Shown here: piece after piece, positions 18,345 to 42,631 of the stretch | How the letters are laid out: each line of letters begins with the position of its first letter | Numbering within the stretch: the first letter of the stretch is position 1 | Origin: Candidatus Latescibacterota bacterium | GTDB taxonomy: Bacteria > Latescibacterota > UBA2968 > UBA8231 | Direction of reading: 5' to 3' | Assembly (NCBI GenBank): GCA_965243025.1 | Contig: CBDETY010000003.1 | Coordinates: 544,001-608,000, forward strand | DNA length: 64,000 nt | The notes under the pieces: generated by a model | Told to the model about the DNA's origin: nothing | What the model saw: only the letters and a program-made list of their open reading frames with translations | Database searches by the model: none | Position numbers and translations under genes: made by a program

Positions 18345-19234
18345 ATGAGCACGCCAGCGACCTTCGATCTGCACCTCCACAGCTACTGGAGCCACGACGC
18401 CTCCGCGGCTCCGGAGAGCCACCTGCGCCGGGCGCGCGAGCTCGGGGTTCGCTGGATCGCTCTCACCGAGCACTACCACCTCGATTCGCTTCCGGAGCTT
18501 CTCGAGGCCGCGGCAGGCTATCCGGAGGTGACTCCGATCCCCTCGACCGAGCTGACCGTCGACACCTCTATCGGCGAGGTCGACCTCCTCTGCCACGGCT
18601 TCCCGCTTTCGCAATCCCCGGAGCTGCGGGAGCTGCTCGACACCTACAGGGAATGGCGGGTCGAAACGGGCAGGGCCGTCGTCAGGGGCCTGCGCGAGCT
18701 GGGTTGCGACATCGACGAGAACGGCTTCATGGACCTGGCCAGGACCTACCGTCCTGCGGATGTCGTCGACCGGCACGGGCTCACCCAGGTAAAGGGGGAC
18801 GCCCTGCGCCGCTACCTCCTCGAAACCGGCAGGATTGCGGGCGAAGCGGAGTTCGCGGGGTTCCGGGCCAGGGCAAAGGAACTGGGAGCCGCTCCCCCGT
18901 ATCCCACCGCGGCAGAGGTGGTACCCGCGGTCAGAAGACTGGGAGCCGTGGTGTCGATCGCCCACCCCACGACAACTTCGGCCAGGGGGACCGCGGCCGC
19001 ATGGATGCCCTGCGGGAGGAGATCGGTTTCGACGGCATCGAGTGCGCCCACCCGATGGTCCCGCCGGAGTTCACCCCGTTCTACCGGGCTTACTGCGTCG
19101 AGCACGGGCTGGTGTCGACCGGCGGCTCCGATTCCCACACCGAGGCGGACATCGCAGCGGGGTTCGCCGGCCACGCGGGAGCAGACGAGTGGATGGAGGA
19201 GCTGCTCGAGCGCCTGCCCGCCGCCCCGAAGTAA
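18345..19234 (+). pseudogene. PHP-domain metal-dependent phosphoesterase split by a single-base frameshift (possibly a sequencing error)
   Basis: N-terminal DLHLHSYWSHD, IALTEH, STEL, IAHP in one frame. DGIECAHP and STGGSDSH in another. One extra C in the C4 run at 18965-18968 rejoins them (AHPHDNF). Confidence 0.8.
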
Positions 19235-19274
19235 CCGAGCCGTCCCGCGGCCCCGGGCCCGGGAGCGGCGTCCC

Positions 19275-22200
19275 ATGCCGCGGCAGGGGGGCAGCCAGCC
19301 TCCTGTTCGCCGCCGTCCTCTGCCTCCCGCTCCCTGAAGTCTCCGCCGCCGGCCAGGCGGCTCGGCTCGCCGCCGACATGGAATTCCTGATCTCGCACGG
19401 CTCGCGCGCCGTCGGTTACCCGGGCGCCGCCGCGGCCGCCCGCCTGATCGAGAACCGTTTCGGCGACCTGGGTCTGAGCGACGTGCGCCGCCGGGAGTAC
19501 CCGGTGGGTATGCCGATGGACCGCGGCGCCTCCCTCACGGTGGCGGAGAGCGGCCTGTCGGCGCCGCTGCTGTGCATGTGGCCCAACCTGGTGCGCACCT
19601 CCACCCTTCCGCCGGAAGGACTGAGCCTGCCGCTGGTGCACGCCGGCAGCGGGGAGTGGGCTGAGCTCAACGGGAGCGAGCTCGAAGGCCGCGCCGTGCT
19701 CATGGATTTCAACAGCGGCCTCAACTGGCTGCGGCCGGCCTCTCTCGGGGCGGTGGCTGTGATCTTCATCGAGCCGGAGGAGACGACCGCCCGCGAGGCC
19801 CAGCGCAAGTACGCAGTCGCCCCCCTCGATGTTCCCCGCTTCTGGATCGACGCAGGCTCGGGGAAGCGGCTGCGCCGGCGCCTCCAGGAAGGAGGGGAGC
19901 TTGCCGTCACCCTGCGGGGGCGCATGGATTGGGAGATGCGCCCGGCCTGGAACCTGTCGGCGCTCCTGCCGGGCTCCGACCCGGAGCTCTCCGGGGAGAC
20001 GGTGGTGCTGCAGGCCTACTACGACGCCGGCTCGGTGGTTCCGGCCCTGGCCCCGGGAGCGACCGCGGCCTGCGGGACCGCCGCCCTGCTCGAAACGGCG
20101 CGCCATCTCGCCGCGCAGCGTCCTGCCCGCAGCGTCCTCTTTCTCGCCACCTCCGCCCACTACCAGGCGCAGCAGGGGATCGTCGACTTCATCAACCGGC
20201 GCGCCCGCACTCACGACGAGTACTCAGCCCGCTTCGGGGAGCCCCTCGACATCGCCCTTTTCGTCGGCCTCGACCTCTCCGGCGGCAGCGATCAGCTCGG
20301 TATCTGGAACAACCTGCGCGGCGATGAGCTGCGCCGCTTCTTCCTTCCCTACTCCCGCGTCTTCATGGCCCACGGGGAAGCGGCCGCAGGGGAGCAGGGC
20401 CGGAATGCGGAGCGCGCCTTCCTCAACGGCGTCAGTCCGGTCCGCGGCAGGAGCTGGGAGTCCCTCGCGCCGGGGGGAATCAACCCGGACGCCGGATGGG
20501 CTCACGCCGCCGGGGTGCCTGCCCTCACCCTGGCCACGGTCAACGACGGCAGGCCGCTGGAGTCCACCCCCCTCGACCGCGGCGTCGACATCCCCAAACT
20601 CGACCGCCAGGTGGAGCTGCTGAAGAGGGCGCTCGCCGGAGTGCTGGACGATCCCGGGCTGTCGTCCGGGCGCGCCGGCCTTGCAGGGGTGGCCAGGGAC
20701 CGCATGCGGGATCTCATCGTTCAGGCGCGCCAGTATCCCCGGCGCAGCCAGGTACCCGACCGTCCGCTCCCCGGCGCCCTCGTGGTGCTCAATACCTATG
20801 ACAAGCAGGTGACCGGCGTGCACGGGCAGCGGGTGGCAATCGCCGACGGAGACGGCAACGCCGTCTTCAGGGGGATTCCCTCCACCGTGGAGAAGCTGGC
20901 CGCCTTCGAGCTCGACCCTGCATCCGGGGCGATCCTCGCAGCCCCCGACCTGGCCAAGCGCGCCATCAAGCACCACGGAAAACCGCTGCCGGACGGTTGG
21001 CTCCCGGCCGCGGCGGCCCGGTCCGTCAACATCAAGACGGTCGTGCTGTTCAGGACTCGAGGCCGGGAGATCTACTCCCTCATCCGTCCGCGATCGCTCC
21101 TGGGCTACGGCGGGCCGACCGTCATGGACCAGGGAGGCGCGGAGCCGCGGCAGTTCGGGTTCCTGCTCAGCAAGTACCCGGAAGAACCGGCCGGTGTCCT
21201 GTTCGGTCCGGCCCTGAGAGGCGAGGAGAACCGCCTGCGGTTCCTGTTCGGGGGACTGCTGGAACAGCGCCTGCTGCTGCTCAACAGCCAGGGGCACGGC
21301 AGCGAGGAGGAGGCGCGCGGCATCGGCTACTCCATGGGGGAGGAAACCCTGACCCGGCTGACGGAGAAAGCGGCCCGCGACATGTGGCGGCTCGACGAGC
21401 AGAGGCTGGTCAAGCTCCGCGAGCACTCGATCAGCAGCCGGGGTCTCGAGCTTCTGCACAAGGGCGCCGGTGACCGGCTGGAGGAGGCCGCCGCCGCGGC
21501 TGAGGAGCTGCGCTGGGACCGCTACGTCGCCATGGCGCGGGAGGCCCTCGGTCTCGAGGCGCGCGTCTATCCCGAGATCCTCGCGACCCTCAACGACGTG
21601 ATCAAGGGGATGGTCTTCTTCCTGGCCCTGCTGGTTCCCGCCGCCTTCTTCGGCGAGCGCCTGTTCTTCGCCGCCGCCGACATCCGCCGGCAGCTCCTCG
21701 GGCTGGCGCTGCTGGTGCTGCTGATCTGGATGATCATCTCGCAGGTGCACCCCGCCTTCGACATCGCCCATCCGCTGGTGATCGTGCTGGCGTTTCTGAT
21801 CATGACCATGGCGGCCCTGGTCATGTGGATGGTCAGCGCCCGCTTCAACAGGACCGCGGCCGAGTACCGCTCCCGGGTTTCCCAGGTGCACCGGGCGGAT
21901 ATATCGCGGCTCGGGGCGGCGTACGTCGCTTTCATGCTCGGCATCTCGAATATGCGGCGCCGCAAGCTGCGCACGGCGATGACGCTGACCACTCTCACCC
22001 TTCTGACCTTCTCGGTGCTGTCGTTCACCTCTTTCGAGGACCGCATCCGCTTTGTGGCGATGCCGGCCCCTTTCGAAGGGGACCGGGAGGGTCTGCTGAT
22101 TCGCGACCGCAACTGGGGGAAGCTCGGCTACCCCGCCCTGGACTACGCCCGGTCCCACTTCGGCGCGGCTGCGGTCCTGGCCCCGCGCTACTGGCACTCC

Positions 22201-25200
22201 GGCCTCGAGGGAGGGGCCAGCTACGTCGAGGTGCGCCGCGGGGAGAGGGTCGCCCGGGCCCTCGGGATGATCGGGCTCGCCCCGGGGGAGCGCCTGGTTA
22301 CCGGCGTCGACCGCTGCCTCGTCGCCGGCAGCTTCTTCGAGGCGGGGGACGAGGCGAGCTGCCTGCTTCCCGACGAAATGGCGGAGGCGCTCGGCATCTC
22401 CGCGGCGGACGCCGGCTCGGCCCGCGTCCGCGTGTTCGGCCGCGACCTCCTGGTGCGCGGGATCTTCTCGGCCGAGGCACTCGACGGCCTGCGCGACCTC
22501 GACGGCGGCAGCCTGACCCCGATCGACACCCGGGTCGCCGCCTTCGACCCGCTCGACCAGCTGCTGGAGCAAGGGAGAGAGGGTGAGGAGGAAGCCGCGG
22601 TGCTGGAGATGACCGCGGCCCTGCGCCTGCCGGGGGCCAACGTCCTCATCACTCCGCACCGGACGCAGCAGGACTTCGGGGGTGCGCTTTTCTCCGTGGG
22701 CGGGCGCTTCCGCGAAGACGCACGGCCGGTCGAGCTCATCGAGAAGTACCTGCTGCGCGTCGCCGCCTTCATGTACGCCGGCATCGACGACGACGCCGGC
22801 GGCATCTCCGTGTACCGCTACAGCTCGGTCGGGTTGACCTCGGTCCAGGGGCTGGGAGCGCTGGCGATACCGGCGGTGATCGCGGCGATGATCGTCCTCA
22901 ACGCCATGCTCGGGGCGGTGTACGAGCGCTTCCGCGAGATCGGCATCTACTCCTCGGTCGGCCTGGCGCCCGTCCACATCTCCGTGCTCTTCCTCGCCGA
23001 GGCGACGGTGTACGCCATCCTCGGGGTGACCATGGGGTACCTCCTGGGGCAGGGGCTCGGCAAGCTGCTGATCGCCCTCGACATGCTCTCGGGGATCACC
23101 CTCAACTACTCCTCGGTCTCCGCGGTGGTCGCAGCCCTTTCGGTGATGGCGATCGTGCTGCTGTCGACGCTCCACCCGGCGCGGGCCGCGGCCCGGGCGG
23201 CGGTCCCCGAGGCGGTCCGGCGCTGGCGCCCCCCGGACCCGGACGGGGACCGCTGGGACTTCGCGTTTCCGTTCAACGTCAGCGAGTCCGAGGCCGCGGC
23301 GACCTGCGGCTTCCTGCACTCCTTCTTCACCGCCCACGGCGGCGCGGTCGGCGGCAGGATGTACACCGAGAAGGTGGTCCTGCGGCGGCATGAGACCCCG
23401 GACGGGCTGGCGTACCGCATCGGCTTCCGCATGTGGCTGGCGCCGTACGACCTCGGGGTCAGCGAGGAGGTGGGCATCGAGCTGGCCCCTGTCGACGACG
23501 CCCCGGGGATGTACGCGATCGCCATCGAAATCGAGCGCCTCAGCGGCGAGCAGCTGAACTGGCGGCGGCTCAACGGCCCGTTCTTCAACACGCTGCGGCG
23601 GCAGCTCCTGATCTGGAACACCCTGCCCGCCGAAACCCGCTCCGGGCACCGGAGCACCGCGGAGCGGCTGCTGGGAGCCGCGGCCGCAAAGCCGGAGGAT
23701 CCGGCCTCGGCGGAACCGTCGCTCCCGGGCTCAACCCCGGGAGAACGGCCGCGGGAGGGAGGCGGCGAGCAGCGCCCGTCCCCCTTCTCGTGGCGGGCCG
23801 TAGGCATAGGTACCGCCGGCGCCATGGCGGTCGGGGTCGGGGCTCCCTACTGCGTCTTCATGCTCAAGGGGTCGTGGATGGCGATCAACAGCACGGTGCC
23901 GATCGCCCTGTTCTACTTCTTCATCGTCGTCGTCATCGCCAACGTCGTCCTCGGCCTGGCCGCGAGGAGGTGGGAGCTCCGCAAGGCGGACCTGATCCTG
24001 ATCTACGTCATGCTGACCATGGCCGCTGCGGTCCCCAACCAGGCCTTCGTCGGCTACGTCATCCCCTGCATCGCCGGGTTCTTCTACTACGCAACCCCGG
24101 AAAACAAGTGGCTGGACATGTACCTCGCGGACGTCCCGAAGTGGATGGTCCCCGAGGTCCGGGCCGCGGAGCTGCTGCACGAGGGCCTTCCCCCGGGCGA
24201 GCCGGTGCCCTGGCAGGGCTGGGCGGAGCCGCTGACCTGGTGGTACCTCTTCTTCCTCGCCCTGAGCCTGATGATGGTCTGCCTGAACGTGATCCTCCAC
24301 CGCCAGTGGTCGGTTCACGAACGGCTCGAGTACCCGATGGTGCAGGTGCCGCTGCACATGATCGAGCGCTCGCAGGGGGCGTTCGCGCCGCTGGGACCCT
24401 TCTTCAGGAACCACTGGACCTGGATCGGCTTCCTCGTGCCGTTCCTGCTGCTCGGCCTGCACGGCCTGCAGCACTACTACCCGGCGGTTCCCGTCTTCAG
24501 TCCGAGCTTCGGCGCCCTGACCCTGATGGACGGGGCCTTCGTCCTCAAGTTCCACACCAACTACGCCTGGATCGGGATTTCCTACCTCGTCAACCTCGAC
24601 GTCACCATGAGCATCTGGGTCTTCTGGATTCTCGGGGTGTTCCAGAAGGCGCTGTTCGGGAAACTGGGGGTCGCCCCGACCGAGACCCTGAGCTTCTACT
24701 CCCTGCACTCGGCCGACCTCGCCCACCAGGCGACCGGCGCCTGCTGGGTCTTCGTGGTCTGGGGCCTGTGGGTCGCCAGGCGCCACCTGGGGCAGGTGCT
24801 GTCCAACGCCTTCGGCCGCAAGGCGGTCGACGACTCGGAAGAACTGATCTCCTACCGCGCCGCGGTCCTCGGGTTCGCCGCCAGCCTCCTGTTCATCGGC
24901 GCCTGGCTGTGGAAGTCGGGGATCCCGCTGGTGGTGCTGCCGATGTTCCTCGTCTCGGCGCTGATCTTCTACATCCTGGTCACGCGCGTGGTGGCGACCG
25001 CCGGGGTGGCCACGGCGCGCTCGCCGATGATCTCGGCGTTCGTCGTCATCTCCGGCCTCGGCAGCGCCTTCATCGGCACCAAGGGGCTGGTGGCGCTGAC
25101 ATTCACCTACCTTTGGCACTCGGAGATGCGCCTGTTCCCGATGGTCGTGTGCGCCCAGAACCTCAAGCTCGCCGAGACCGTCCGCGGCCCCAAGGGGAGG

Positions 25201-25698
25201 CTGTTCTGGGCGATCTGCATCGCCCTGGTTGTCAGCCTGCTGGCGGCGACCTGGATCATCCTTCACCTGTGCTACACGTACGGGGGCATCAACCTGCACA
25301 CCTTCTTCATGCAGAGTCAGTCGGTTCGCCTGTTCAACGACATGGCGCGCCACATCCAGCACCCGGTCGGCCCCGACCTGCGCGGCTGGGGGTTCACCGG
25401 CGCCGGCGCCGCCATCGAGGCCGGCCTGATCTACGCCCAGAAGCGGTTCTTCTGGTGGCCGCTGCACCCTGTGGGCTTCGTGATCGCCAACGGCTGGCTG
25501 ACCAGCCAGATCTGGTTCGCGGTCTTTCTCGGCTGGCTGGCGAAGCTCGTCATCATCAGGAACGGCGGCATGCAGCTGTTTCTCGCGGCGCGCCCCTTCT
25601 TCATCGGGCTGATCCTCGGGGAGGCGACGGCGGCCGGAACCTGGCTGGTCATCGACTATCTCGCCGGCAGCACCGGCAACCACATCACCCACATGTAG
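19275..25698 (+). CDS. Giant membrane protein: PA/M28 peptidase-like ectodomain + FtsX/MacB-like permease + DUF6785/DUF6784-type polytopic domain
   Basis: Uninterrupted frame to TAG 25698. M28-like GSRAVGYPG, NLSALLPG, AYYD...APGA. FtsX-like ISNMRRRKLRT and LNAMLGAVYERFREIGIYSSVGLAP...FLAEA. From ~23779, FYYATPEN.W, HRQW..HERL.YP, WWPLHP.GF. Start ambiguous: ATG 19275 needs a 1-base shift; first in-frame ATG is 19378. Confidence 0.85.
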
Positions 25699-25704
25699 CT
25701 GCCG

Positions 25705-27408
25705 ATGCGGGAGCGCCTGACACGCCTCGGGAGGGGAACCGCCGCGCCGATTGCCGCGGTAGGCCTGGCGTACCTGCTGACCCTGCTCTGCTTCGAGCGG
25801 GACGGCATGTGGACCACGGACAACGCCGCCAAGTTCCTGCAGGTGCGGGCCCTGCTGCAGAGCGGCTTCGCGAGCTTCGCCATTCCGTGGCCGGGCAGGA
25901 GCATCGACCCGGAGTTCGTCTACAACCCCCTGCCGTTCCACTTCTCGTCGGTGCGCGGCGGCGAGCTGTACTCGGTGTTCTCTCCCGCCTTCGCCATGGT
26001 GTCGGCGGTTCCGTACGCGCTCCTGGGATACTGGGGGCTCTACCTGCTGCCGTTCGCCTCGGCGCTGCTGATGCTGCGGGCGGTGGCGGAGCTCTGCGCT
26101 CTCGCCGGCGGCGGCGCCGGGGCCCGGCGGGCGGCGGTGCTGGTCGCCGGCCTCGCCACCCCGGTGTGGTTCTACGGCGTCGCCTTCTGGGAACACTGCG
26201 TCGCGGCCTGTCTCTGCCTGTGGGCGCTGCTGTTCTTCGCCCGCTTCGTCGATTCCGGCGCGAGCCGGGACCTGGTGCGGGGCGCGGTGCTCGTCAGCCT
26301 CGCGGTCTATCTCAGGGACGATCTCTACCTGCTGTGCGCGCTGCTGGCCCTGTCGGCAGCTGCCGCCCGCAGAGCGAACCGGCTGTCGACCGCGCTCCGG
26401 TGCGGGGGCGCCATGGCGGTCTGCCTGGCTCCCCTCTGGATCTGGCAGTGGCAGGTCATGGGCAGCCCGCTCGGGCAGCACCTGTCGACCCACCTGTTCT
26501 CTTCGGCGGGAATCCCGGGGCACCTCCTCGACCGTCCGAAGGTGTTCTACAACCTGCTGGCCGCCGCGAGCCCGGCCCCGATCGTTTCCATTTTCCTGTC
26601 GGCGCCGTTCCTCTACGCCTGGCTGCGCCGGCCGCGCTTCGACGACGCCGGCTTCGGCGCCGCCCTGCCCCTGTTCGCCGCCGCAGCGACGGTGAGCGCC
26701 CTGATCTCCTACGGCGGCTACCTCCTCTTCGACAGCACCCTGGCCTACCTGCTGGCCTCGTCGAACAGCCTGTTCGCGGCCGCGCCCCTGGTGATTCTCG
26801 CCTTCCCGCGCTGCGGGGAAGAGGGAGGAACGCGCCGGTGGCTGGGGCGGCTGGCGGCCGCCTACGCCCTGCTCTACGCGGCGGCCGCCCCCGATCTCGG
26901 CTCCTCCGGCCTGCACTGGGGCAACCGCTTCCTGCTGATCCTCTACCCGGTCTGGTCGCTGCTGGCCGCGGTCAACGTCGAGCAGTGGCGGCGGCGGGAA
27001 GGAGGCGGCCGGCGGTCCTGGAGGGACTGGAGCCTCGCCGCGGTCGTCGCCGTCAGCGTCGGGGCGCAGCTGTTCTCCGTCGAGCTGCTGCGCCGCAAGA
27101 AGGAGTTCTCCCACCGGCTCAACGACTTCGTCGCCGCGAGCCCGGAGCAGGTCGTGCTGACGAGCGAGCGCTGGGCGGGGCACGAGCTCCACCGCGTCTT
27201 TTTCGATAAGCCGGTCTTCTACGTCGAGTACCCCCACGCCATGGACGCCCTGCGGCAGAAGCTGAGGCAGGCGGGGTACGACAGCTTCCTGTTTCTGACG
27301 CGGCGGCAGCGAGTCGCCGCGCGGCAGCCCGGGGTCGAAATCGGGGACGGCGGCTTGAACTGGTACGGGATGAAGGCATTTTCAGTCGGCATGGCGTCGC
27401 CGCGGTAG
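25705..27408 (+). CDS. Polytopic membrane protein, putative GT-C-fold glycosyltransferase
   Basis: TDNAAKFLQ acidic loop after TM1, YSVFSPAF...P..LLGYWGLYLLP, TPVWFYG..FWEH, LRDD, HWGNRFLL. About 12 hydrophobic segments. Confidence 0.65.
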   Translation: MRERLTRLGRGTAAPIAAVGLAYLLTLLCFERDGMWTTDNAAKFLQVRALLQSGFASFAIPWPGRSIDPEFVYNPLPFHFSSVRGGELYSVFSPAFAMVSAVPYALLGYWGLYLLPFASALLMLRAVAELCALAGGGAGARRAAVLVAGLATPVWFYGVAFWEHCVAACLCLWALLFFARFVDSGASRDLVRGAVLVSLAVYLRDDLYLLCALLALSAAAARRANRLSTALRCGGAMAVCLAPLWIWQWQVMGSPLGQHLSTHLFSSAGIPGHLLDRPKVFYNLLAAASPAPIVSIFLSAPFLYAWLRRPRFDDAGFGAALPLFAAAATVSALISYGGYLLFDSTLAYLLASSNSLFAAAPLVILAFPRCGEEGGTRRWLGRLAAAYALLYAAAAPDLGSSGLHWGNRFLLILYPVWSLLAAVNVEQWRRREGGGRRSWRDWSLAAVVAVSVGAQLFSVELLRRKKEFSHRLNDFVAASPEQVVLTSERWAGHELHRVFFDKPVFYVEYPHAMDALRQKLRQAGYDSFLFLTRRQRVAARQPGVEIGDGGLNWYGMKAFSVGMASPR

Positions 27409-33741: not shown

Positions 33742-36402
33742 TCAACGGTTCAACAGCTCGTAAAGCAGGTCGCCGTAGTAGGCGGCCGTCCACTCCAGGG
33801 GGTTGATCCGCAGCGCTCGCCCATAGGCGTGGAGGGCTTCCCGCCGCTGCTTGCGGAATCGCAGCACGTCTCCCTCGATGACCGACTCCCTTGCCCTGAA
33901 CCAGACAGCGAGGGTGTCGCCGCGGCCCGGGGTCCAGGCGGGGTCGGCCCGGTCGAGCCAGGGGAGGAGTTCGACGGGGCGGCGCGCGATCTCGCGGGCG
34001 AGATCCACGAGCACCATCCAGGTCCTGGCATGAAATCCGCGCGGTCCGACGAAGCTCAGGTGGGGATGATCGTCGGTGTTGAGGGGCCCCTCCCCGACGT
34101 ACCGCCGAAAGGCGTCCGAACCGAAGAAGAAACAGCCGAGGACGGCGAAGGGGAGGTCGAGGTCGACTTCCTCGAGGCTCTCCCGCACACGGGGGGAGGC
34201 GTATTTCTCCCGAAGCCGGCTGTAGGAGATCGACAGGGGGTCGAGGGTCCCCACCATGATCGCGTAGTTGTTGGTGCGCCACAGGCTGGCGTGCGGGAAG
34301 ACGGACTGGAAGGTCCGCAGGATGGTCTTGAAGTCCGCGACCGGAAGTCCGTGGAACGGCAGCCACTGCACGAGGATGCCGCCCGGTTTCAGGCGCGACC
34401 TGCACAGCTCGTAGAACTCCCGCGTGTAGAGCAGCCAGCTGTCGGTGCTGGTGGGATGGGTCGCGTCCCCGGTGATGACGTCGTAGCGCCCTCCTGTCCG
34501 CAGCATGAAGTTGCGGCCGTCGTCGACGATCAGCTCGATCGGGTAATCTCCGAGGCGCTCGAGGATCCGGTGGTTGTAGGGTCCGAACTCCTGGCGCGCC
34601 GCCTCGACGACTTCGGGCACGAGCTCGACGCACTGGATGCGGTCGGCGTCGTGCTGCGCGACCGCCCCCAGGGCGATGCCGCCGCCGAGGGCCACGACGA
34701 GGACGTCGCGGGGGTCGGGATGCAGCAGCATCGGCAGGTGTCCGAGCAGGCGGAAGAGCTGGAAGGAACCGTACTCGGAGGGGACCTGTCCGCCGCCGTT
34801 GAGAAGCATCTTGCGGTAACCGTCCCGCTTGCCGGTGACGGTGATGATCCCCTCGGCCCCTTCCTCGTAGTAGAGCAGGCTGGACCCGGGCTGCGACGGA
34901 CGGGACAGCTCCCTCATCACTTCCCCGGGAGAAGCGAGGATCACCGCGGCTGCGGCGGCCGCGGCCAGGGCCAGGGTTCCCAGCTTGCGGCCCGGCCGAA
35001 GCAGGGGATTGACGGCGATGACCGCGATCCCGACCAGCACGTTGAGGACGCCGAGGAGGCGGAAGGTGCCCTCGGTGCCGAAGAGGGGGATCAGCAGGAG
35101 GCCGGCGGCGAGGGAGCCGGCGAACGCGCCGAGGCTGTTGGCGGCGTTGACGTCGCCGACGCCGCGGCCGACCTGCCGGAAGCTCCGGGTCCAGATGCGG
35201 CTCACCACCGGGAAGGAGGCGCCCATCAGCAGGGTCGGAACCAGCATGATGCCGAAGGACATGGCGAAGATGCCCCCCCGGTAACGCCACCAGGTGCTCG
35301 CCCCCTGGATCTCGCCGACCCAGCCCGAGGCAGCGGCGAAGAGGGCGACCGAGGCGATCCCCATGAGGCCGACGGCGATCTGGAAGCCCCCGAACATCGA
35401 CAGCAGGTCGCGGCGCCTGTCGAGAAGGAGGCCGCAGAGGAAGCTTCCGAGGCTGAGGCCGAGCAGGAAGGCCATCAGCACGATGCTGAACTCGTAGTGG
35501 GTGTTGGCGGAGAAGGCGACGATGAACAGGCGCACCCAGGCGACCTCGTAGGCGAGGGCTGCGAACCCCTGGAGGGCGAAGCCGATCAGGACCGCCTTCA
35601 GCGCCAGGGGGGGCAGGGGGAGGACCTCGGCGGCCTCTGGCGGTCGGGGCTGGGGCGCCGGCTCGGGAACCCCTGTCCGGCTCTCCCCTGGAGGGGTCTC
35701 CGGCGCCGGGTCGGAGGCAAGTTCCCGGCTGTCCGCGGCCTCCTCCGCCCCGGGGCCCCGGAGGACGCCGCGCCCGATCAGGCAGGCCAGCGACGCCACG
35801 AGCAGGTTGACCACGCCGACGGCGTAGCTGCTGCCGCGCAGGCCGAGCTCCTCCATCAGGTAGAAGGTGACGCCGGCGACCCCGGCGACGGCGCCGAGGG
35901 TGTTGGCGGCGTACAGCAGGCCGACGCCGCTGCCGAGGCGGCTGAAGCGCCGCACCGCCGACCTCGAGATCACCGGAAGCGTCGCTCCCATGGCCGCGGT
36001 CGGGACCAGCAGCAGCCCGAAGGCGAGGGCGAAGCGGACCGCGGCGAAGGCGGCCGGGTGGCGCCCGGTCCAGTCGGCCTCCGCCAGCCATCCGCTCGCC
36101 CCCAGCAGATGGGGGAACAGGAAGGCGAAGAGGCCGATCCCGGCCTCGAGGGCGGCGAACACGAACAGGGGCCTGCGCACCCGGTCGATCCGGCGTCCGA
36201 AGCAGAAGCTGCCGATGGCGAGGCCTGCCATGAAGGCGCTCAGCACCGTGCTCACCGCCGGGAGGGTGGCGCCGAATACGACGATCAGCATGCGCGCCCA
36301 CAGGACCTGGTAGACCAGCCCGCAGGCGCCCGACAGCAGGAAGAGGGCCGGCAGCCCCCATGCCGCCGGGGCGGAGCCGGTGCGGTTGTCCGGTGCGTCC
36401 AC
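33742..36402 (-). CDS. Fused MFS-like/spermidine-synthase-like membrane protein with C-terminal TPR (paralogue of 7979-10624)
   Basis: FLLSGACGLVYQVLWARML, LYAANTLG, ALGGGIA, CVELVPEV, DDGRNF, YDVITGDATHP, SWLLYTREFY, ALRINP. Confidence 0.9.
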   Translation of the reverse strand: MDAPDNRTGSAPAAWGLPALFLLSGACGLVYQVLWARMLIVVFGATLPAVSTVLSAFMAGLAIGSFCFGRRIDRVRRPLFVFAALEAGIGLFAFLFPHLLGASGWLAEADWTGRHPAAFAAVRFALAFGLLLVPTAAMGATLPVISRSAVRRFSRLGSGVGLLYAANTLGAVAGVAGVTFYLMEELGLRGSSYAVGVVNLLVASLACLIGRGVLRGPGAEEAADSRELASDPAPETPPGESRTGVPEPAPQPRPPEAAEVLPLPPLALKAVLIGFALQGFAALAYEVAWVRLFIVAFSANTHYEFSIVLMAFLLGLSLGSFLCGLLLDRRRDLLSMFGGFQIAVGLMGIASVALFAAASGWVGEIQGASTWWRYRGGIFAMSFGIMLVPTLLMGASFPVVSRIWTRSFRQVGRGVGDVNAANSLGAFAGSLAAGLLLIPLFGTEGTFRLLGVLNVLVGIAVIAVNPLLRPGRKLGTLALAAAAAAAVILASPGEVMRELSRPSQPGSSLLYYEEGAEGIITVTGKRDGYRKMLLNGGGQVPSEYGSFQLFRLLGHLPMLLHPDPRDVLVVALGGGIALGAVAQHDADRIQCVELVPEVVEAARQEFGPYNHRILERLGDYPIELIVDDGRNFMLRTGGRYDVITGDATHPTSTDSWLLYTREFYELCRSRLKPGGILVQWLPFHGLPVADFKTILRTFQSVFPHASLWRTNNYAIMVGTLDPLSISYSRLREKYASPRVRESLEEVDLDLPFAVLGCFFFGSDAFRRYVGEGPLNTDDHPHLSFVGPRGFHARTWMVLVDLAREIARRPVELLPWLDRADPAWTPGRGDTLAVWFRARESVIEGDVLRFRKQRREALHAYGRALRINPLEWTAAYYGDLLYELLNR

Positions 36403-36462: not shown

Positions 36463-38382
36463 TCACCAGCGGGTGACGTCCCCGATCATGCCGGTGAAAT
36501 AGTCGACGATCATCCAGCCCCCGTGGCTGGTCACCTGCCCGAGGACCATGCCGAGGAACAGCGGCCTCAGCCTGCGGTAGAGGGCCGAGCCGCCGTAGCG
36601 CAGGATGACGAGCTTGAGAAGCCAGGCGATGAACATGCTCGACCAGGCGAAGAACATCATGTAGGTGCCGCCGACCGGAAACCCGATCGGGTGCAGGGGC
36701 CACCACAGGAAGCGGTGCCGGAGCCAGGTCAGGGCGAGCATCGCCGCGGCGCCGGCCGCGGTGAAGGCGCCGCGCGGGCCGAAGAAATTCCAGTCGTCGA
36801 CCGGTGTCGAGATCGCGGTGGCGACATTGCGGAACGACCAGTCGCCCATGATGTGGTAGAACCAGTAGTGCAGGTTGATGCCGCCGTACTCGTAGGCGAT
36901 GGCGATGACGGTCCAGGCGGAGCTCGCCAGGCTGACGGCGATGGCGAGCATGATCGACCAGAACAGGACCGGGCCGCGAACCCCGGCGAGCTCGGCGAGG
37001 CGGGCGCCGTTGGCGACAGCGGCCATCAGGCTGATCTTGATGTCTCCCGCCCAGCCGTTGCACAACCCGAGCACGGTCAGTCCCTGGGCGCCGATCGGCC
37101 CGTTGCCGAACGCCATGGTGGTGAACGCCGTCGGCGTCATCTGCGCGCGCCCGTACCCCATCCCCCCTTCGGCGACGATCTTGGTCAGCCCGAAGAAGAC
37201 TACGAAGGAGATGCCCATCAGGAACCCGGCGACGATGAGAGGAAGCCCCGCCTGGTTGAGGAACAGGACCGTGTAGGCCGTCGCCGCCAGCAGCAGCCAG
37301 ACCGCGGTGCGGTGTCTGAGCAGCCCGTTTCCGCCCTCCTCGTCTCCCCGGGAGAAGGCGGCGCGAAACCCGGTTTTCAGGTGTCCCCTCGCGGTCCACA
37401 GGGCTACCGCGACGAGGGCGATCATTGCGCCCATGGCCTGCTGGGCGGTGGCGATGGAGCCCTCCGTGTGCATCAGGCGCAGCTCCGGCACCGAGTAGCC
37501 CAGCCGCGCGAACAGGGCGAGCTCGACGTAGTAGAACAGGTAGAAGAACCACAGGCTGAAGGAGATCTCCAGGCTGAGGAAATAGGTCAGGCCGATGACG
37601 ATGAACCAGATGCTGAACAGCAGGTGGCGGACCTCGGGGAGGATCTCCACCGTCGTCGACAGGGCGATCCCCGAAAGGCCGCCGGAGTAGCGGCTCAGGG
37701 CGTTGATGCCGAGCAGCACCATCGGAATGGAGAAGCCGATCCACATCGTCGAGTTTTTCAGGAACGGGTTGATCCTTCCGCCGTCCTCCTGCACCATGTC
37801 GGCCGGCAGTTGCACCAGCGGGTAGATCAGGCGCTCGTGGTGCGCCCACTGCCGGTGCATGAGCGCCACCATCGAGATCATCATCAGGTACAGGGCCAGG
37901 GCGAAGGAGCCCCAGGCGGCCAGGGGGACGAACCAGGCGTCCCAGGGGATGGGATGGCCTTTCGGCAGCCCCTCGAAGAAGTAGAAGACGGCGAGATCGT
38001 CCTGCGGCACCAGCCAGGACTTCAGGTGCGGGTGAATGAGGTCGGCCCAGCCGTTCTCCGGGGTCGCGTAGTAGAAGACCTCGGCGAGAAAGGGGATCAG
38101 CTGCGCGGTCAGGCCGACCGTGGGAATGGCGGTGGCGACGATCATCATCGTGTAGACGAGGACGAGCTCCCGCGACGACAGCGCCCACTGCCGGCGCACC
38201 AGGACCAGCGGGGTGTTGTAGACCAGGATCAGGAGAAAGAGCAGCAGGATCGCCCCGCCGGAGATGAAGTCGCCGGTCCAGTTGAAGGTGCCCATGGCGA
38301 GGACCCCGTACGACATGACGACGTTGATCACCAGGCACATCAGGATGCCGATGAGCAGGGCTTTGACGGGAACTCGTTTCAC
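36463..38382 (-). CDS. DUF6785/DUF6784-type polytopic membrane protein (stand-alone)
   Basis: Colinear with the C-terminal domain of 19275-25698: FYYATPENGW, FFEGLP.G..IPW..W..PL, HRQWAHHERLIYP.VQ.P, YGGINL, RFLWWPLHPIGF. GTG start chosen. Confidence 0.82.
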   Translation of the reverse strand: MKRVPVKALLIGILMCLVINVVMSYGVLAMGTFNWTGDFISGGAILLLFLLILVYNTPLVLVRRQWALSSRELVLVYTMMIVATAIPTVGLTAQLIPFLAEVFYYATPENGWADLIHPHLKSWLVPQDDLAVFYFFEGLPKGHPIPWDAWFVPLAAWGSFALALYLMMISMVALMHRQWAHHERLIYPLVQLPADMVQEDGGRINPFLKNSTMWIGFSIPMVLLGINALSRYSGGLSGIALSTTVEILPEVRHLLFSIWFIVIGLTYFLSLEISFSLWFFYLFYYVELALFARLGYSVPELRLMHTEGSIATAQQAMGAMIALVAVALWTARGHLKTGFRAAFSRGDEEGGNGLLRHRTAVWLLLAATAYTVLFLNQAGLPLIVAGFLMGISFVVFFGLTKIVAEGGMGYGRAQMTPTAFTTMAFGNGPIGAQGLTVLGLCNGWAGDIKISLMAAVANGARLAELAGVRGPVLFWSIMLAIAVSLASSAWTVIAIAYEYGGINLHYWFYHIMGDWSFRNVATAISTPVDDWNFFGPRGAFTAAGAAAMLALTWLRHRFLWWPLHPIGFPVGGTYMMFFAWSSMFIAWLLKLVILRYGGSALYRRLRPLFLGMVLGQVTSHGGWMIVDYFTGMIGDVTRW

Positions 38383-38493
38383 CGCGGGCGGTCCGCCGTG
38401 GGGCGGGGTTTGTAACGGAGGCGGGCGGGGAGTATGCTTGCCGGCCGATCGAGGAATGCCGGGGAAACTCGGCGACATGCGCGGGAAAGGAAA

Positions 38494-39396
38494 GTGGGAA
38501 TCGCCAGGCGCCGGGTTCTATTGGGGGCATCGATACTGATCGGCCTGTGCCTGCTGGCGCTGCTGGCCGCCCGGGTCCACCGGCCGCAGCCGTCGCCCGG
38601 ACACCCTTACTTTGCGGGGGCCGGGTTTCTCGTCGTCGCCCACCGCGGCGGCAGGGGGATGGGTCCCGAGAACACCCTGCCGCTGTTCAGGGAGGCGGTG
38701 AAGGCCGGGGCGGACGTCCTCGAGATGGACGTGCGCCTCAGCCTCGACGGGGTGCTGGTCGTCCATCACGACCGCACCGTGCGCCGCACCACCGGCGCCT
38801 CCGGCCGCGTCGACTCGCTGACCGCCGCCCGGCTGCAGGCCCTCGACGCCGGCTTCGGCTGGAGCCGCGACGGCATGAGCCACCCGTTCCGCGGCAAGGG
38901 GTACCGGATCCCGCGGCTCGCCGAGGTGCTGCGCGCCTTCCCCGGGCAGCGCATGCTGATCGAGCTCAAGCCGCGGCGGCGGCTCGCCGCCGAGGCCCTG
39001 TGCGGGGAGATCCGCGGCGCCGGGATGCAGGACCGGGTGGCGGTGGCCGGCTTCGACGGAGAGACGTTGGGCGCCTTCCGCGGCATCTGCCCGGAGGTCG
39101 CCACCTCCGCCGCCGGCGGGGAGGTGGTCGCCTGGAAGGTTTCGCACCTTCTCGGGCTCGGCAACTTCTACACCCCGGAGTTCGAGCTGTTCGCGGTGCC
39201 GGAACGGGCCGGGCCCCTGCGGATCGTCGACCGCGGCTTCGCCTCCCGGGCCCGGGAACGCAACCTGCCGGTGCAGGTCTGGACCGTAAACGAAACCGGA
39301 GACATGGAGCGGCTGATCGACCTCGGGGCGACCGGCATTCTGACCGACCGCCCGGTACGGCTGCTCGGGCTGCTCCGCGAGAAGGGACTGAGATGA
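38494..39396 (+). CDS. Glycerophosphodiester phosphodiesterase with N-terminal membrane anchor
   Basis: VAHRGG...PENTL, LEMDV, VVHHD, LIELK, VWTVN, GILTDRP. Confidence 0.93.
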   Translation: MGIARRRVLLGASILIGLCLLALLAARVHRPQPSPGHPYFAGAGFLVVAHRGGRGMGPENTLPLFREAVKAGADVLEMDVRLSLDGVLVVHHDRTVRRTTGASGRVDSLTAARLQALDAGFGWSRDGMSHPFRGKGYRIPRLAEVLRAFPGQRMLIELKPRRRLAAEALCGEIRGAGMQDRVAVAGFDGETLGAFRGICPEVATSAAGGEVVAWKVSHLLGLGNFYTPEFELFAVPERAGPLRIVDRGFASRARERNLPVQVWTVNETGDMERLIDLGATGILTDRPVRLLGLLREKGLR

Positions 39397-40100
39397 AGGA
39401 CGAAGTGCTGGCCGCCAGCGGCCTGACCAAGACCTACCGGAGCGGCAACCGCGACCTGACGGTGCTGAGCGACGTCAGCTTCTCGGTGCCGCGCGGCTCA
39501 ACCTGCGCCGTGGTCGGCCCCTCCGGGAGCGGCAAGACCACCCTGCTCGGGCTGTGCGCCGGCCTCGACCGCGCCTCCTCGGGATCGGTGGTGCTCGACG
39601 GCATGGCCCTCGACGAGCTCGACGAAGACCGGCGCGCCCGCCTGCGCAGCGAGAAGGTCGGGTTCGTGTTCCAGACCTTTCAGCTGGTGCCGACCCTGAC
39701 GGCGCTCGAGAACGTGTCGGTGCCGCTCGAGCTGCGGGGGGAGAAGGGGGTGGAGGCGCAGGCGCGGGAGCTGCTCGAGCGCGTCGGGCTCGGCGACCGT
39801 ACCGGCCACTACCCGGCGCAACTGTCGGGAGGAGAGCAGCAGCGGGCCGGGCTTGCGCGCGCCTTCATCAACCGCCCGCGGATCCTGTTCGCCGACGAGC
39901 CGACCGGCAATCTCGACACCGAGACCGGCGGGGTGGTCGCCGACCTGATGTTCAACCTCAACGAGGAGGCGGGCACGGCGCTGGTGCTGGTGACCCACGA
40001 CATCGAGCTGGCGCGGCGGGCGGGGCGCATCATCCGCCTGCACGGGGGCCGCGTCGCCGAGGACTCGGGGGGCCCCGGGGAGGAAGGGGTTACCGCATGA
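39393..40100 (+). CDS. ybbA: ABC transporter ATP-binding protein (YbbA/LolD-like)
   Basis: GPSGSGKT, GFVFQTFQL, LSGGEQQR, FADEPTGNLD, VTHD. ATGA overlap with the upstream gene. Confidence 0.9.
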   Translation: MKDEVLAASGLTKTYRSGNRDLTVLSDVSFSVPRGSTCAVVGPSGSGKTTLLGLCAGLDRASSGSVVLDGMALDELDEDRRARLRSEKVGFVFQTFQLVPTLTALENVSVPLELRGEKGVEAQARELLERVGLGDRTGHYPAQLSGGEQQRAGLARAFINRPRILFADEPTGNLDTETGGVVADLMFNLNEEAGTALVLVTHDIELARRAGRIIRLHGGRVAEDSGGPGEEGVTA

Positions 40101-42631
40101 CGGGTTGGGTCCTGCGCATGGCCTGGCGGGACAGCCGCGGCCGCCGCGGCCGGCTGTTCCTGCACACCGTTTCCATCGCCGTCGGGATCGCCGCCCTGAC
40201 CGGGCTGCGCGGTCTCTCGCGCACCATGGAGGAGAACGTCGACGAGCAGGCCGCGGCCCTGATGGGAGCCGACGTCGAGATCGAGAGCGCCGCCCCTTTC
40301 GAGGGGGAGCTGCGGGGGATCGTCGATTCGCTCGCCGCCCTCGGCGGCCGCATTGCGGAGGAGGCGGAGATGAACTCGATGGTCCTGTTCCCGGCCTCCG
40401 GGGGCAGCCGCCTCGCCCGGGTGCGCGCCCTGCGGGGGGGATTCCCGTTCTACGGGGAGCTCGGCGCCGACCCCCCCGAAGCAGCGGCCTCCTGGCAGGC
40501 GGCGGGCATGGCCCTGGTCGACGACGGCCTGATGCTGCAGTACGGCGTCGACGTCGGGGACACCATCCGCGTCGGCCGCGTGAGCCTGGCCATCGCCGGC
40601 CGGCTGCTGAACCTGCCCGGGGAGACGGCGTTCCGCAGCGACCTGCAGCCTGTCGTCTTCATGCCGCTGGACCGCCTCGGGCAGACCGGGCTGATACAGC
40701 GGGGGAGCCGGGTGCGCTACCGCGTCCACTTCGAGCTGCCGGAGGAAACCGACGCGGCGGCCCTGGCAGCCTCCCTCGACGAACGGCTCGAGCGCCTCGA
40801 CGCCGAAATCGAGACGGTGGAGGACCACAAGCGGCGCCTGGGGCGCACCCTGCGCAACCTCTACCGCTTCCTCGGCCTCGGCAGCTTCGTCGCCCTGCTG
40901 CTCGGGGCGGTCGGGGTCGCCAGCGCCGTCCACGCCCACGTCGAGCAGAAGCTGGAGACCGTCGCCGTCCTGCGCAGCCTCGGGGCCGCCTCCGGGGCGG
41001 CGCTGCGCATCTACCTCGTGCAGGCCTTCGCCATGGGGCTGATCGGCTCCCTCGCCGGGGCCGCGGCCGGCACCGTCCTGCTCTGGCGGCTGCCCTCCCT
41101 GCTCGCCGATTTCCTCCCGAAAGAGCTGGGAGAGCTGCAGGCGGCGCCGTCGCTGCCGGCGCTGGCCGAGGGGGTGGCGGCCGGTTCGGCGATCTCCCTG
41201 CTGTTCGCCGCCCTGCCGCTGCTGGCGGTGCGCCGGGTGTCGCCGCTGCTGGCCCTGCGCGCCTCGTACGAGACCGAGCCGGGCACCGGCGACCGCCTCG
41301 TCCGCGCCCTGCTGCTCGCCCTGGCGGCCGGCGCCACCTTCCTGCTGGCCCGGGCCCTGGCCGGGCGTCCTGACCACGCCCTGTACTTCGCCGGCGGAAC
41401 CCTGGCGGCGCTGCTCCTGCTTGCGGGTTCGGCGCGCCTCCTGCGCGGCGCCCTCAGGCGCTGGCTGCCGTCGGGCTGCGGCTACCTGCTGCGCCAGGGC
41501 CTGGCCAACCTCTACCGCCCCCACAACCAGACCCTGCTGCTGCTGGCCAGCCTCGGCCTCGGCACCTTCCTCGTCGCCGCCCTCTACACCGCGCAGACCT
41601 CCATTCTCGGGCACGTCAACAGCGTCGCCGGGGGCCAGCGGCCGAACATGGTGCTGTTCGACATCCAGAGCGACCAGAAGGAAGCGGCCGCCGCCCTTGT
41701 GAGGGAGATAGGGATGCCGGTGATGCAGGAGGTTCCGGTGGTCGCCATGCGGCTGCGGGAGGTGAAGGACAAGACCGTGGAGGAGTTGCTGAGCGAGGGT
41801 CCGCGCGGGAGCCGCTGGGCCCTGGGCCGCGAGTACCGCGTCACCTACCGCGACACCCTCACCGGGACGGAGGTGATCGTCGCCGGACAGTGGCGGGGGT
41901 CGGCCGCGGACACCGTCTTCGTCTCCCTCGAGCGCAGGCTGGCCGAGGCCCTCGACGTGGACCTCGGTGACAGGCTGCTCTTCGACGTCCAGGGGGTTCC
42001 GGTCGAGGCCGTCGTCGGCAGCCTGCGGCAGGTCGAGTGGCAGCGCATCATGCCGAACTTCCTCGTCCTGTTCCCCGCCGGGGTCCTCGAGGAGGCGCCC
42101 CAGTTCCACGTCCTCGTTACCCGCTCAGGCGACGCCGAGACCCGCGCCGAGCTGCAGCTGCGGGCGGTCGGGGACTTCCCCAACGTGTCGGTCATCGACC
42201 TCGACCTGGTGCTGAGCACCGTCGACAAGGTGCTGGACAAGGTAGCGGTGGTGGTGCGCTTCGTCGCCCTGTTCAGCATCGCCACCGGGCTCGCGGTGCT
42301 GGCCGCCGTGGTTACCGGCAGCCGCTTCCAGCGCCTGCGGGAGAGCGCCCTGCTGCGCACCCTGGGAGCCAGCCGCGGCCAGGTCGGGCGCATCCTGCTG
42401 ATCGAGCACCTGCTCCTCGGCGGGCTCGCCGGACTGGTCGGGCTCGTGCTGGCGATGGCGGGGGGCTGGGCCCTGGCGACCTTCGTCTTCGAGGTGACCT
42501 ACGCCCCCTCGTGGCAGGCCCTGGGGTTCGCCCTGGTCGCCGTGCCGCTCTGCACTGTCCTGGCCGGGTTTATCGGCAGCCGCGGGGTCCACACGGCCAC
42601 GCCCCTCGAGGTCCTGCGGCAGGCCGACTGA
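40097..42631 (+). CDS. ybbP: ABC transporter permease, double FtsX-like (YbbP-like)
   Basis: MAWRDSR, GFPFYGEL, AVLRSLGA, PNMVLFDIQSDQ, RESALLRTLGA. ATGA overlap. Confidence 0.9.
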   Translation: MTGWVLRMAWRDSRGRRGRLFLHTVSIAVGIAALTGLRGLSRTMEENVDEQAAALMGADVEIESAAPFEGELRGIVDSLAALGGRIAEEAEMNSMVLFPASGGSRLARVRALRGGFPFYGELGADPPEAAASWQAAGMALVDDGLMLQYGVDVGDTIRVGRVSLAIAGRLLNLPGETAFRSDLQPVVFMPLDRLGQTGLIQRGSRVRYRVHFELPEETDAAALAASLDERLERLDAEIETVEDHKRRLGRTLRNLYRFLGLGSFVALLLGAVGVASAVHAHVEQKLETVAVLRSLGAASGAALRIYLVQAFAMGLIGSLAGAAAGTVLLWRLPSLLADFLPKELGELQAAPSLPALAEGVAAGSAISLLFAALPLLAVRRVSPLLALRASYETEPGTGDRLVRALLLALAAGATFLLARALAGRPDHALYFAGGTLAALLLLAGSARLLRGALRRWLPSGCGYLLRQGLANLYRPHNQTLLLLASLGLGTFLVAALYTAQTSILGHVNSVAGGQRPNMVLFDIQSDQKEAAAALVREIGMPVMQEVPVVAMRLREVKDKTVEELLSEGPRGSRWALGREYRVTYRDTLTGTEVIVAGQWRGSAADTVFVSLERRLAEALDVDLGDRLLFDVQGVPVEAVVGSLRQVEWQRIMPNFLVLFPAGVLEEAPQFHVLVTRSGDAETRAELQLRAVGDFPNVSVIDLDLVLSTVDKVLDKVAVVVRFVALFSIATGLAVLAAVVTGSRFQRLRESALLRTLGASRGQVGRILLIEHLLLGGLAGLVGLVLAMAGGWALATFVFEVTYAPSWQALGFALVAVPLCTVLAGFIGSRGVHTATPLEVLRQAD

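Follow-up and report, generated by a model that had tools for sequence, protein, structure and literature searches.

A conserved fusion of an M28-type pseudo-peptidase head, a MacB/FtsX-type permease module and a DUF6785/DUF6784 domain in Candidatus Latescibacterota

The 64,000-nucleotide window analysed here (we use the word for the whole stretch of DNA) belongs to a 6.8 Mb genome of a Candidatus Latescibacterota bacterium, termed G000 in the following. It carries on its forward strand a giant gene in which an exported PA/M28-fold head, a permease module of the MacB/FtsX type and a DUF6785/DUF6784 domain are joined in one chain. We show here that this fusion is real and conserved, and that the first two modules are linked to DUF6785/DUF6784 proteins by gene order in other genomes as well. 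By a modest balance of probability, the gene product is one of several components of an inner-membrane machine akin to MacB and LolCDE (type VII ABC) that is hard-wired to its DUF6785/DUF6784 domain. Domains were assigned with Pfam profiles, and structures were modelled with AlphaFold2 (AF2) and then compared by Foldseek and VIA; both AF2 models, covering residues 176-1005 and 1005-1650, were built from an alignment of 67 sequences. An initial annotation, made from the letters of the DNA, had already proposed a three-module anatomy, and Pfam and AF2/Foldseek bear it out. The features of the gene, followed by two further genes of the window, are listed below.

19189..25698, forward strand: the whole gene, with a GTG start and about 2169 amino acids, stop included
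19291..19359, forward strand: signal-peptide-like hydrophobic core AASLLFAAVLCLPLPEVSAAG, read from the sequence
19360..20694, forward strand: exported PA and M28-fold domain, a pseudo-peptidase (AF2, Foldseek, 2anp alignment)
20704..21279, forward strand: one or more all-beta domains that separate the M28 head from the stalk (strands in the model at residues 449-640)
21358..21846, forward strand: long helical stalk, then three predicted transmembrane (TM) helices (model helices 667-829 with a predicted local distance difference test score, pLDDT, of 53-70; hydrophobic stretches in the sequence)
21847..23202, forward strand: MacB/FtsX-type module (AF2 model m7274801e75f8, Foldseek, VIA, Pfam FtsX)
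22924..22944, forward strand: ERFREIG coupling-helix motif, residues 1364-1370
23251..23688, forward strand: cytoplasmic alpha/beta domain after TM4, beta-alpha-beta4-alpha2, pLDDT above 90
23689..23784, forward strand: linker rich in Pro, Gly and Glu over the fusion point, no stop, pLDDT below 50
23788..25284, forward strand: DUF6785 domain, complete profile (residues 1652-2150; 373-378 bits)
25387..25671, forward strand: DUF6784 domain (residues 2185-2279; 97.6-99.9 bits)
25705..27408, forward strand: downstream neighbour, a polytopic putative GT-C-like glycosyltransferase of 567 amino acids (NCBIfam LA_3751/LA_3752 family, 184 bits, below the cut-off of 200)
36463..38478, reverse strand: stand-alone DUF6785/DUF6784 paralog with both Pfam domains

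For brevity, N denotes the M28-FtsX gene or part, which is the N-terminal 1,450 residues of the fused protein, and D a DUF6785/DUF6784 protein. C is a membrane protein distantly related to D, X a protein of about 340 amino acids, F a mini-FtsX protein and A its LolD-class ATPase.

The stop-free frame that holds the gene runs over 2287 codons (18835-25698, forward strand). The window has a G+C content of about 70% and long open frames on both strands, and open reading frames (ORFs) antisense to the gene are long as well, for example 20224-23649 on the reverse strand, so that the length of the frame by itself is no proof of a gene. It is a real gene, with a coding bias (G+C at the three codon positions of 0.69/0.49/0.90, the signature of coding DNA), four Pfam matches in order and close orthologs such as P0003 (92% identity, 2137 amino acids). 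The linker was said to be free of stops, and indeed the frame stays open across it; contigs of the runs X4 (22926-25800) and X5 (23336-24335), from two studies, bridge it with 0 differences and 0 gaps. A query spanning the junction recovers stop-free orthologs in two genomes of the same genus (G002, 88%; G001, 82%) and in one of another genus (G006, 55%). In G015 and in the paralogous locus L001 of G000 itself there are stops at the junction, and N and D are adjacent genes. Seventeen of the 120 best database clusters are 2088-2146 amino acids long and combine FtsX, DUF6785 and DUF6784, and two more do so in part; they stem mostly from Candidatus Latescibacterota and go by names such as 'FtsX-like permease family protein', 'M28 family peptidase' or 'ABC transporter permease'. 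In a FastTree phylogeny of 81 D sequences, from which partial matches and the four of the 51 own D genes outside 600-760 amino acids were excluded, the six fused D parts group together (98% support), with nine free G000 paralogs as their sister group. Hardly any credit is left for the view that the fusion came about as an artefact or by gene decay, through loss of the stop between two neighbouring genes and without functional meaning. Such a view might appeal to the pair at L001, whose members lie just 6 nt apart so that a fusion takes little change, and to the G001 ortholog (G001:C10:605116-606616), where query residues 1-440 match in one frame and 394-500 in another, within the DUF6785 part, a change that is possibly a frameshift or a sequencing error. 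It is largely refuted by the occurrence of fused forms, 49-58% identical, in other genera and species, by the monophyly of the fused D parts, by the unchanged linker in contigs of two studies and by the coding bias throughout the frame.

The link between N and D extends well beyond the fused gene. One genome per species was scanned, which gave at least 442 loci, and the best 80 were examined with home-built profiles; several of these loci share one metagenome-assembled genome, and kin are not independent. The most frequent arrangement is N-C (31 loci), followed by D-N-C (23), D-N (10), the fusion (5, all from other species) and N-D (4), while D-N-C-D, D-D-N-C and N-C-C occur once each. N stands alone in four loci, of which L047 and L091 are truncated at both ends and L072 upstream, leaving L062 as the one with full flanks. 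Altogether, C and/or D directly adjoin N on the same strand, or D is fused to it, in 76 of the 80 loci; an unfused N lies directly beside D in 39 and beside D or C in 71. As one gene in some genomes and as linked neighbours in others, with the fusion conserved and the modules co-occurring in other genomes, N and D make up the Rosetta-stone link that the initial annotation had seen in the single gene. Since the N-adjacent D genes are spread over at least five clades of the D tree, the association has emerged or been re-established several times, and repeated association is stronger evidence of a functional link than one inherited gene order. N was present in all 41 sampled genomes of its own class, in several copies each, and in 126 of 151 sampled Armatimonadota genomes, mostly as a single copy; the latter are related genomes of unknown completeness. 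G000 holds seven N genes: the studied one fused to D, one with D downstream (L001), one with C and then D downstream, one with a UPF0182 gene downstream, and three that adjoin a Pfam-less membrane protein of 660-884 amino acids (C). Two N paralogs are flanked by DUF4159, AgmX/PglI/TonB-C-like and DUF4350-like proteins (L001:12297-15208, reverse strand; L006:9818-13001, forward strand), and two others (L004 and L005) have ExbB/ExbD/TonB genes nearby.

The exported head has the PA/M28 fold. Pfam gives a Peptidase_M28 match at residues 373-454 (27.5 bits, cut-off 21.3) that is partial, covering positions 1-78 of the 193 in the profile, and the AF2 model mf1537dad804c of residues 176-1005 (pLDDT 89.5, predicted template modelling score 0.87) retrieves 2ek8 in Foldseek (E 3.3e-22), BSAP and PaAP, then the transferrin receptor TfR1 (3kas, 4e-19) and GCPII. 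The metal site was checked by a phmmer alignment to the Aeromonas aminopeptidase 2anp and by column counts over 67 homologs, with the M28 metal and catalytic residues given the roles that they have in that enzyme. In this alignment Y395, D397, A411, H442 and Y443 occupy the metal and catalytic positions. The first of them belongs to the motif YYD (Y395, Y396 and D397; 20017-20025), A411 to TAACG (residues 410-414) and the last two form HY (20158-20163); YYD and HY lie at the coordinates that had been proposed for a degenerate zinc site. The degeneration turns out to be family-wide: the first zinc His is replaced by Tyr in 64 of the 67 sequences, the position of the bridging Asp holds Q, A, T or M (A411 here), the catalytic Glu is His in 67 of 67, and the ligand Glu is F, H or Y (Y443 here). 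The fold is kept but the co-catalytic zinc ligands that could be compared and the catalytic Glu are not, and, as judged from the aligned columns, the site is dead throughout the family at the positions that could be checked. The residues now found at the site are themselves conserved (Y395, Y396, D397 and H442; position 410 is Glu in 60 of 67, Thr here), which suggests that the former peptidase pocket was retained and put to a new use. TfR1 is itself an M28-fold relative without the catalytic residues. Compared with the PA-domain M28 aminopeptidases and TfR1, the studied head shares the fold and has lost the checked catalytic residues, but it differs in its family-specific conserved replacements and in being anchored to an FtsX permease. 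The head is a clear bacterial example of a non-catalytic ectodomain derived from a peptidase fold.

Behind the stalk, the chain continues into a permease module for which Pfam, Foldseek and VIA agree. Pfam FtsX matches residues 1344-1454 with 41 bits, and the AF2 model of residues 1005-1650 (pLDDT 82, with a well predicted periplasmic domain) finds MacB (5gko, E 2.6e-12), LolCDE and HrtB in Foldseek; YtrEF, YbbP, BceB and FtsX are also among the structural matches. The best VIA scores are Z 17.7, 17.2 and 17.1, within an overall range of 17.7-13.4. For the periplasmic domain alone, VIA gives 3ftj (Z 13.4, root mean square deviation 3.5, 179 aligned residues), 5f9q (12.2) and LolE and LolC (about 12). 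The MacB_PCD profile reached 20.6 bits, below its cut-off, and did so in the paralog L003 only. The module starts with two N-terminal cytoplasmic helices and proceeds through TM1, a Porter/Sabre-like periplasmic domain, TM2, the coupling helix, TM3 and TM4, and so has the four TM helices, the Porter/Sabre domain between TM1 and TM2 and the coupling helix of a MacB/FtsX type VII permease. The ERFREIG coupling motif, whose position had been given correctly, is nearly invariant (E360, R361, I365 and others in the family alignment); in solved MacB-type transporters it touches the ATPase. The cytoplasmic domain of about 150 residues that follows TM4 has a weak likeness to SRPBCC, Bet v 1 and KA1 folds (VIA Z 8.8-7.3), and an atlas search (0.79) yielded no assignment for it. 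The resulting topology is self-consistent, with the head outside and seven TM helices placing this alpha/beta domain inside; the stand-alone D proteins start with a basic stretch ahead of their first TM helix.

A permease of this build could also serve as a regulator or sensor instead of a transporter. N would then be a mechanotransducer like FtsEX-EnvC or BceAB, whose head would govern an enzyme outside the cytoplasm or signal how active the DUF6785 carrier is, a function that we consider distinctly unlikely. FtsX structures do rank among the best VIA matches (8tzj, Z 16.0; FtsEX-EnvC 8hd0, Z 15.8), BceAB is matched by both Foldseek and VIA, and the combination of an inactive metallopeptidase fold with a long stalk of helices recalls EnvC, in which a degenerate LytM domain sits on a coiled coil. 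Both systems place an FtsX-type transmitter on long helices leading to a metallopeptidase fold that has lost catalysis (VIA Z 15.5-16). However, EnvC is a protein of its own with the M23/LytM fold, whereas the dead domain of N has the M28/PA fold and is fused in cis. Moreover, no hydrolase or kinase is a recurrent neighbour of N across the 80 loci, the recurring partners are polytopic membrane proteins, and the periplasmic domain of N is nearer to the MacB/LolC Porter-Sabre domains than to FtsX ectodomains.

At the C-terminal end, the DUF6785 and DUF6784 profiles (PF20581, PF20580) match at full length, above their curated cut-offs and in this order. The stand-alone paralog on the opposite strand is colinear with the fused part at 33% identity, in agreement with the claim that the giant protein ends in a complete domain of this type. 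G000 has 50 DUF6785 matches, most of them stand-alone genes of about 650 amino acids in loci for sugar and sugar-acid breakdown and for secreted proteins of the FG-GAP/ASPIC or type IX-tailed kind. Free D paralogs lie amid genes for FG-GAP/ASPIC proteins, proteins with type IX secretion system tails, sulfatases, the enolase superfamily and UxuA, and also amid Gfo/Idh/MocA, aldo-keto reductase and sugar-isomerase genes. DUF6785 looks like the main carrier family of G000 for substrates of the sugar and sugar-acid type, and the sugar and sugar-acid catabolic genes beside the free paralogs suggest that the family as a whole takes substrates derived from carbohydrates. By hhalign, C is homologous to D (94% probability, E 1e-7, over the N-terminal 200 columns; 88-91% in further comparisons, with 88% over 548 columns). 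Both have a weak and inconsistent likeness to the OPT family (PF03169), which is of similar size and polytopic and gives weak colinear profile matches. The OPT cut-off of 25.8 bits is exceeded by one DUF6785 protein, L010, with 32.9 bits, a single OPT sequence matches the D profile with E 0.039, and atlas neighbours of D with scores of 0.77-0.79, to be taken as a lead only, are named peptide or OPT transporters. D differs from OPT in having no solved relative that we found (0 hits when the PDB was searched with the D profile) and in the sugar-catabolic loci of its free paralogs. Adjoining the stand-alone gene of the window is an 886-amino-acid fusion of an MFS transporter and a spermine/spermidine synthase (33742-36402, reverse strand); seven such fusions occur in the neighbourhoods examined, three of them adjacent to a DUF6785 gene.

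By gene order the system is also larger than the initial annotation saw, with C, X and a PqqD-like protein conserved in it too. X (330-346 amino acids, no Pfam match) and the PqqD-like protein (about 140 amino acids, named after NCBIfam matches) are encoded after C in about 20 of the 80 loci, the pair being found in about 20 of the loci L016-L095, and G000 has one copy of each, in L003 (L003:2663-4034, reverse strand). A PAP2 gene follows the core operon in 14 loci, often after this pair. PqqD-like proteins are peptide chaperones in pathways for ribosomally synthesized and post-translationally modified peptides, and X with its PqqD-like partner looks like a peptide-handling module. Because of the M28 ancestry of the head, the PqqD-like gene in the core operon and the faint OPT likeness, a peptide or peptide conjugate might be ventured as cargo, as a weak guess.

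The same neighbourhoods can be read in favour of envelope building. N would in that case belong to an exporter that moves a lipid-linked glycan, a glycolipid or a lipoprotein in the manner of LolCDE, with D or C acting like a flippase, which strikes us as improbable. It would fit the GT-C-like glycosyltransferase directly downstream of the studied gene, the PAP2 genes behind the core operon, the PMT-like, RmlD and GT2 genes that flank the F-A pair, the closeness of LolCDE and LolF in structure and sequence, and the near-universal, mostly single-copy N of Armatimonadota, as expected for a housekeeping envelope role. The glycosyltransferase neighbour, however, is not conserved, with 0 homologs in the 80 related loci, and was rejected as a part of the system; the remaining neighbours may reflect the inherited synteny of one ortholog group, and the free D paralogs are found in catabolic, not biosynthetic, loci.

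What drives the permease is a separate matter. No ABC ATPase is encoded in the studied operon, the nearest ABC_tran gene being 16.6 kb away. This gene belongs to an ordinary, otherwise unrelated FtsX system (39393-42631, forward strand), in which the ABC ATPase is followed by a permease of 844-1025 amino acids that contains MacB_PCD and two FtsX domains; a GDPD phosphodiesterase gene (38434-39396) lies upstream of the system. All 30 other FtsX matches of G000 lie within 0.45-6.6 kb of an ABC_tran gene; for each of the seven N modules the distance is 16.6-189 kb. An ATPase is present in eight of the 80 N loci, and in all eight its best match in the studied genome is g3066 (57-73% identity). This gene stands directly behind that of a 234-amino-acid mini-FtsX, which consists of TM1, a loop of about 60 amino acids and TM2-4 with the ERFREIG motif; the pair (G000:C3:4455966-4457492), with F at L113:6966-7670 and A at L113:7704-8492, is unlinked to N in this genome. 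In six of the 80 loci, mostly from Armatimonadota, F and A lie on the strand of N, in the order F-A-N-C or N-C-X-PqqD-F-A. Among the 151 Armatimonadota genomes, N occurs in 126 and F in 125: both are present in 124, N alone in two, F alone in one and neither in 24. In 73 of the 124 genomes with both, F and N share a strand and are no more than 12 kb apart. In the class of G000, F is single-copy and adjoins A in 41 of 41 genomes. By profile scores F resembles the MacB TM region most (67 bits; FtsX 26), and A resembles MJ0796, LolD and MacB most (236-176 bits; FtsE 157), which places the pair in the MacB/LolD class and not with FtsEX. The earlier statement that the operon holds no ABC ATPase is therefore right, none lying within 16.6 kb, but the machine probably has one, with the F-A pair as the candidate engine. 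As this pair is linked to and co-occurs with N in Armatimonadota, we read N as a putative large subunit of the LolCDE-like kind, with its small subunit and ATPase encoded in trans in G000. Another LolD/MacB-class ATPase of G000 is an orphan between uvrB and an SDR gene (G000:C3:1351305-1352057, L112:5305-6057), 704 kb from any FtsX other than N and unusually conserved, at 81-98% identity across the genera of the family. It was rejected as the engine, all eight N-locus ATPases being closer to g3066.

The distance of N from ATPases could instead mean that there is no engine at all, with N a passive, membrane-anchored binding scaffold, DUF6785 a proton-driven secondary carrier and FtsX a mere anchor or gate, much in the sense of the receptor-gated uptake or export that the initial annotation had considered possible. 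We hold this to be unlikely overall, and an ATPase-free mechanism to be doubtful. In its favour are the isolation of all seven own paralogs from ABC_tran genes, the 72 of 80 related loci without an ATPase within about 8 kb and the cytoplasmic alpha/beta domain behind TM4, roughly where a partner would be expected. Orphan FtsX permeases are, besides, a recognised category, of which 'ADOP family duplicated permease' is a weak match here. The ADOP permeases (TIGR03434) are likewise of the FtsX type, far from ATPases and expanded into paralogs, but the studied protein scores 14.3 bits, far under their cut-off of 622. ADOP proteins have two FtsX modules, no M28 head and no DUF6785 partner. Against a passive scaffold stand the joint presence of N and F in 124 of the 127 sampled Armatimonadota genomes with at least one of them, their proximity in 73 of the 124, the same ATPase ortholog in every one of the eight loci with an ATPase, and the near invariance of the coupling motif.

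We therefore come back to a MacB/LolCDE-type machine hard-wired to a DUF6785/DUF6784 domain, which we think somewhat more probable than its opposite. The product of the studied gene would be its large subunit, with N and D (or C) forming one complex. D or C would supply the route through the membrane and N would handle the cargo on the periplasmic side, the ex-peptidase pocket being the putative binding site. The LolD-class ATPase and the mini-FtsX would drive the FtsX module as in LolCDE, and by analogy with FtsEX-EnvC an ATP-driven movement of the FtsX helices may pass via the stalk to the head. In G000 the single unlinked F-A pair would have to serve all seven N paralogs. Several observations weigh against this picture. 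In the loci labelled Latescibacterota or Gemmatimonadota F is adjacent to N in 0 of 56 and an ATPase in 2 of 56, so that the ATPase link for G000 is an extrapolation from another phylum, and there the 24 genomes without both genes could be a few clades. A complex prediction for N residues 1335-1650 with the D part scored 0.02, which has no bearing either way. At the metal site, two of the five ligand positions are less certain: D480 (GLDLS motif) seems kept, and the last His ligand was not located in the 2anp alignment or the columns of the 67 sequences. The studied fused paralog has no C, X or PqqD-like neighbour, and the sugar and sugar-acid loci of the free D paralogs point to carbohydrates rather than peptides. 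The fused D part has no OPT match at E <= 10 in Pfam, hhalign to OPT gives D 12% probability (E 2.4e-3, 350 colinear columns) and C 27%, and the OPT score of the C protein of L009 is inconsistent, with 36 bits in one search and nothing in hmmscan.

More tentatively, one may think of a hybrid transporter in which a type VII ABC mechanotransducer (N with F and A) is permanently coupled to a carrier-like DUF6785 or C protein, and ATP-driven periplasmic movements load or unload the carrier. Latescibacterota would then have one engine shared by interchangeable receptor-carrier cassettes, one of which is now a single chain of 2,170 amino acids. This is speculative, and we regard it as possible without expecting it to hold in full.

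The closest known relatives of N in structure are MacB, LolCDE and HrtBA (Foldseek E 2.6e-12, VIA Z 14-17.7), with which it shares the four-helix FtsX module, the Porter/Sabre-like domain and the ER.REIG coupling helix. The LolD/MacB-class ATPase and the smaller FtsX subunit linked to N in another phylum recall LolC/LolE/LolD and are nearer to MacB/LolD than to FtsX/FtsE. In contrast to these systems, N adds about 900 N-terminal residues (the PA/M28 head, beta domains, stalk and three TM helices) and the cytoplasmic alpha/beta domain, its locus has no ATPase, and it is constantly partnered with or fused to a polytopic membrane protein of 640 amino acids. We know of no such partnership for any solved MacB/LolCDE-type member, and a literature search found none. 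Searches on DUF6785, DUF6784, PF20581 and PF20580 returned no paper, and those on FtsX-like, orphan or duplicated permeases with M28 and on Latescibacter/OPT nothing relevant. The components belong to known superfamilies; the combination of a dead PA/M28 head, a MacB-type permease, a carrier-like partner and an engine in trans is undescribed in the searched literature. DUF6785/DUF6784 is a large family without known function, and the fusion and the gene order tie N, D, C, the PqqD-like protein and a MacB/LolD-class engine into a single system that is open to test. If the coupling is true, the mechanotransmission known from MacB, LolCDE and FtsEX would extend to a carrier-type partner, and there would be a first functional handle on major membrane proteins of several little-studied phyla.

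Some details concern the ends of the gene and its occurrence. The initial annotation had placed the start at the ATG at 19275, which must be given up: this codon is in frame +2 relative to the ORF and meets a stop. The GTG at 19189, behind GGGAG, is the sole in-frame ATG, GTG or TTG 5' of the signal-peptide core, which also opens the ortholog P0003. One G less in the six-G run at 19286-19291 would bring the ATG into frame and give an N-terminus like that of P0003. An assembly error in this run was nevertheless rejected, since X4 contigs cover 19100-19604 with 0 differences and 0 gaps, and GTG 19189 was retained. Contigs of X5 and X20 extend just 7 and 15 nt past the run, with no indels listed. 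With this start, an upstream PHP-domain ORF (18345-19337, forward strand) shares about 150 nt with the 5' end of the giant gene. Contigs of X20, a metatranscriptomic (RNA) library, are about 95% alike and cover parts of the gene but not 23634-23933, so that they do not demonstrate transcription of the fusion. At least part of 19100-25800 is held by 20 of the 23 public runs listed, from 12 studies, several of them labelled sponge metagenome.

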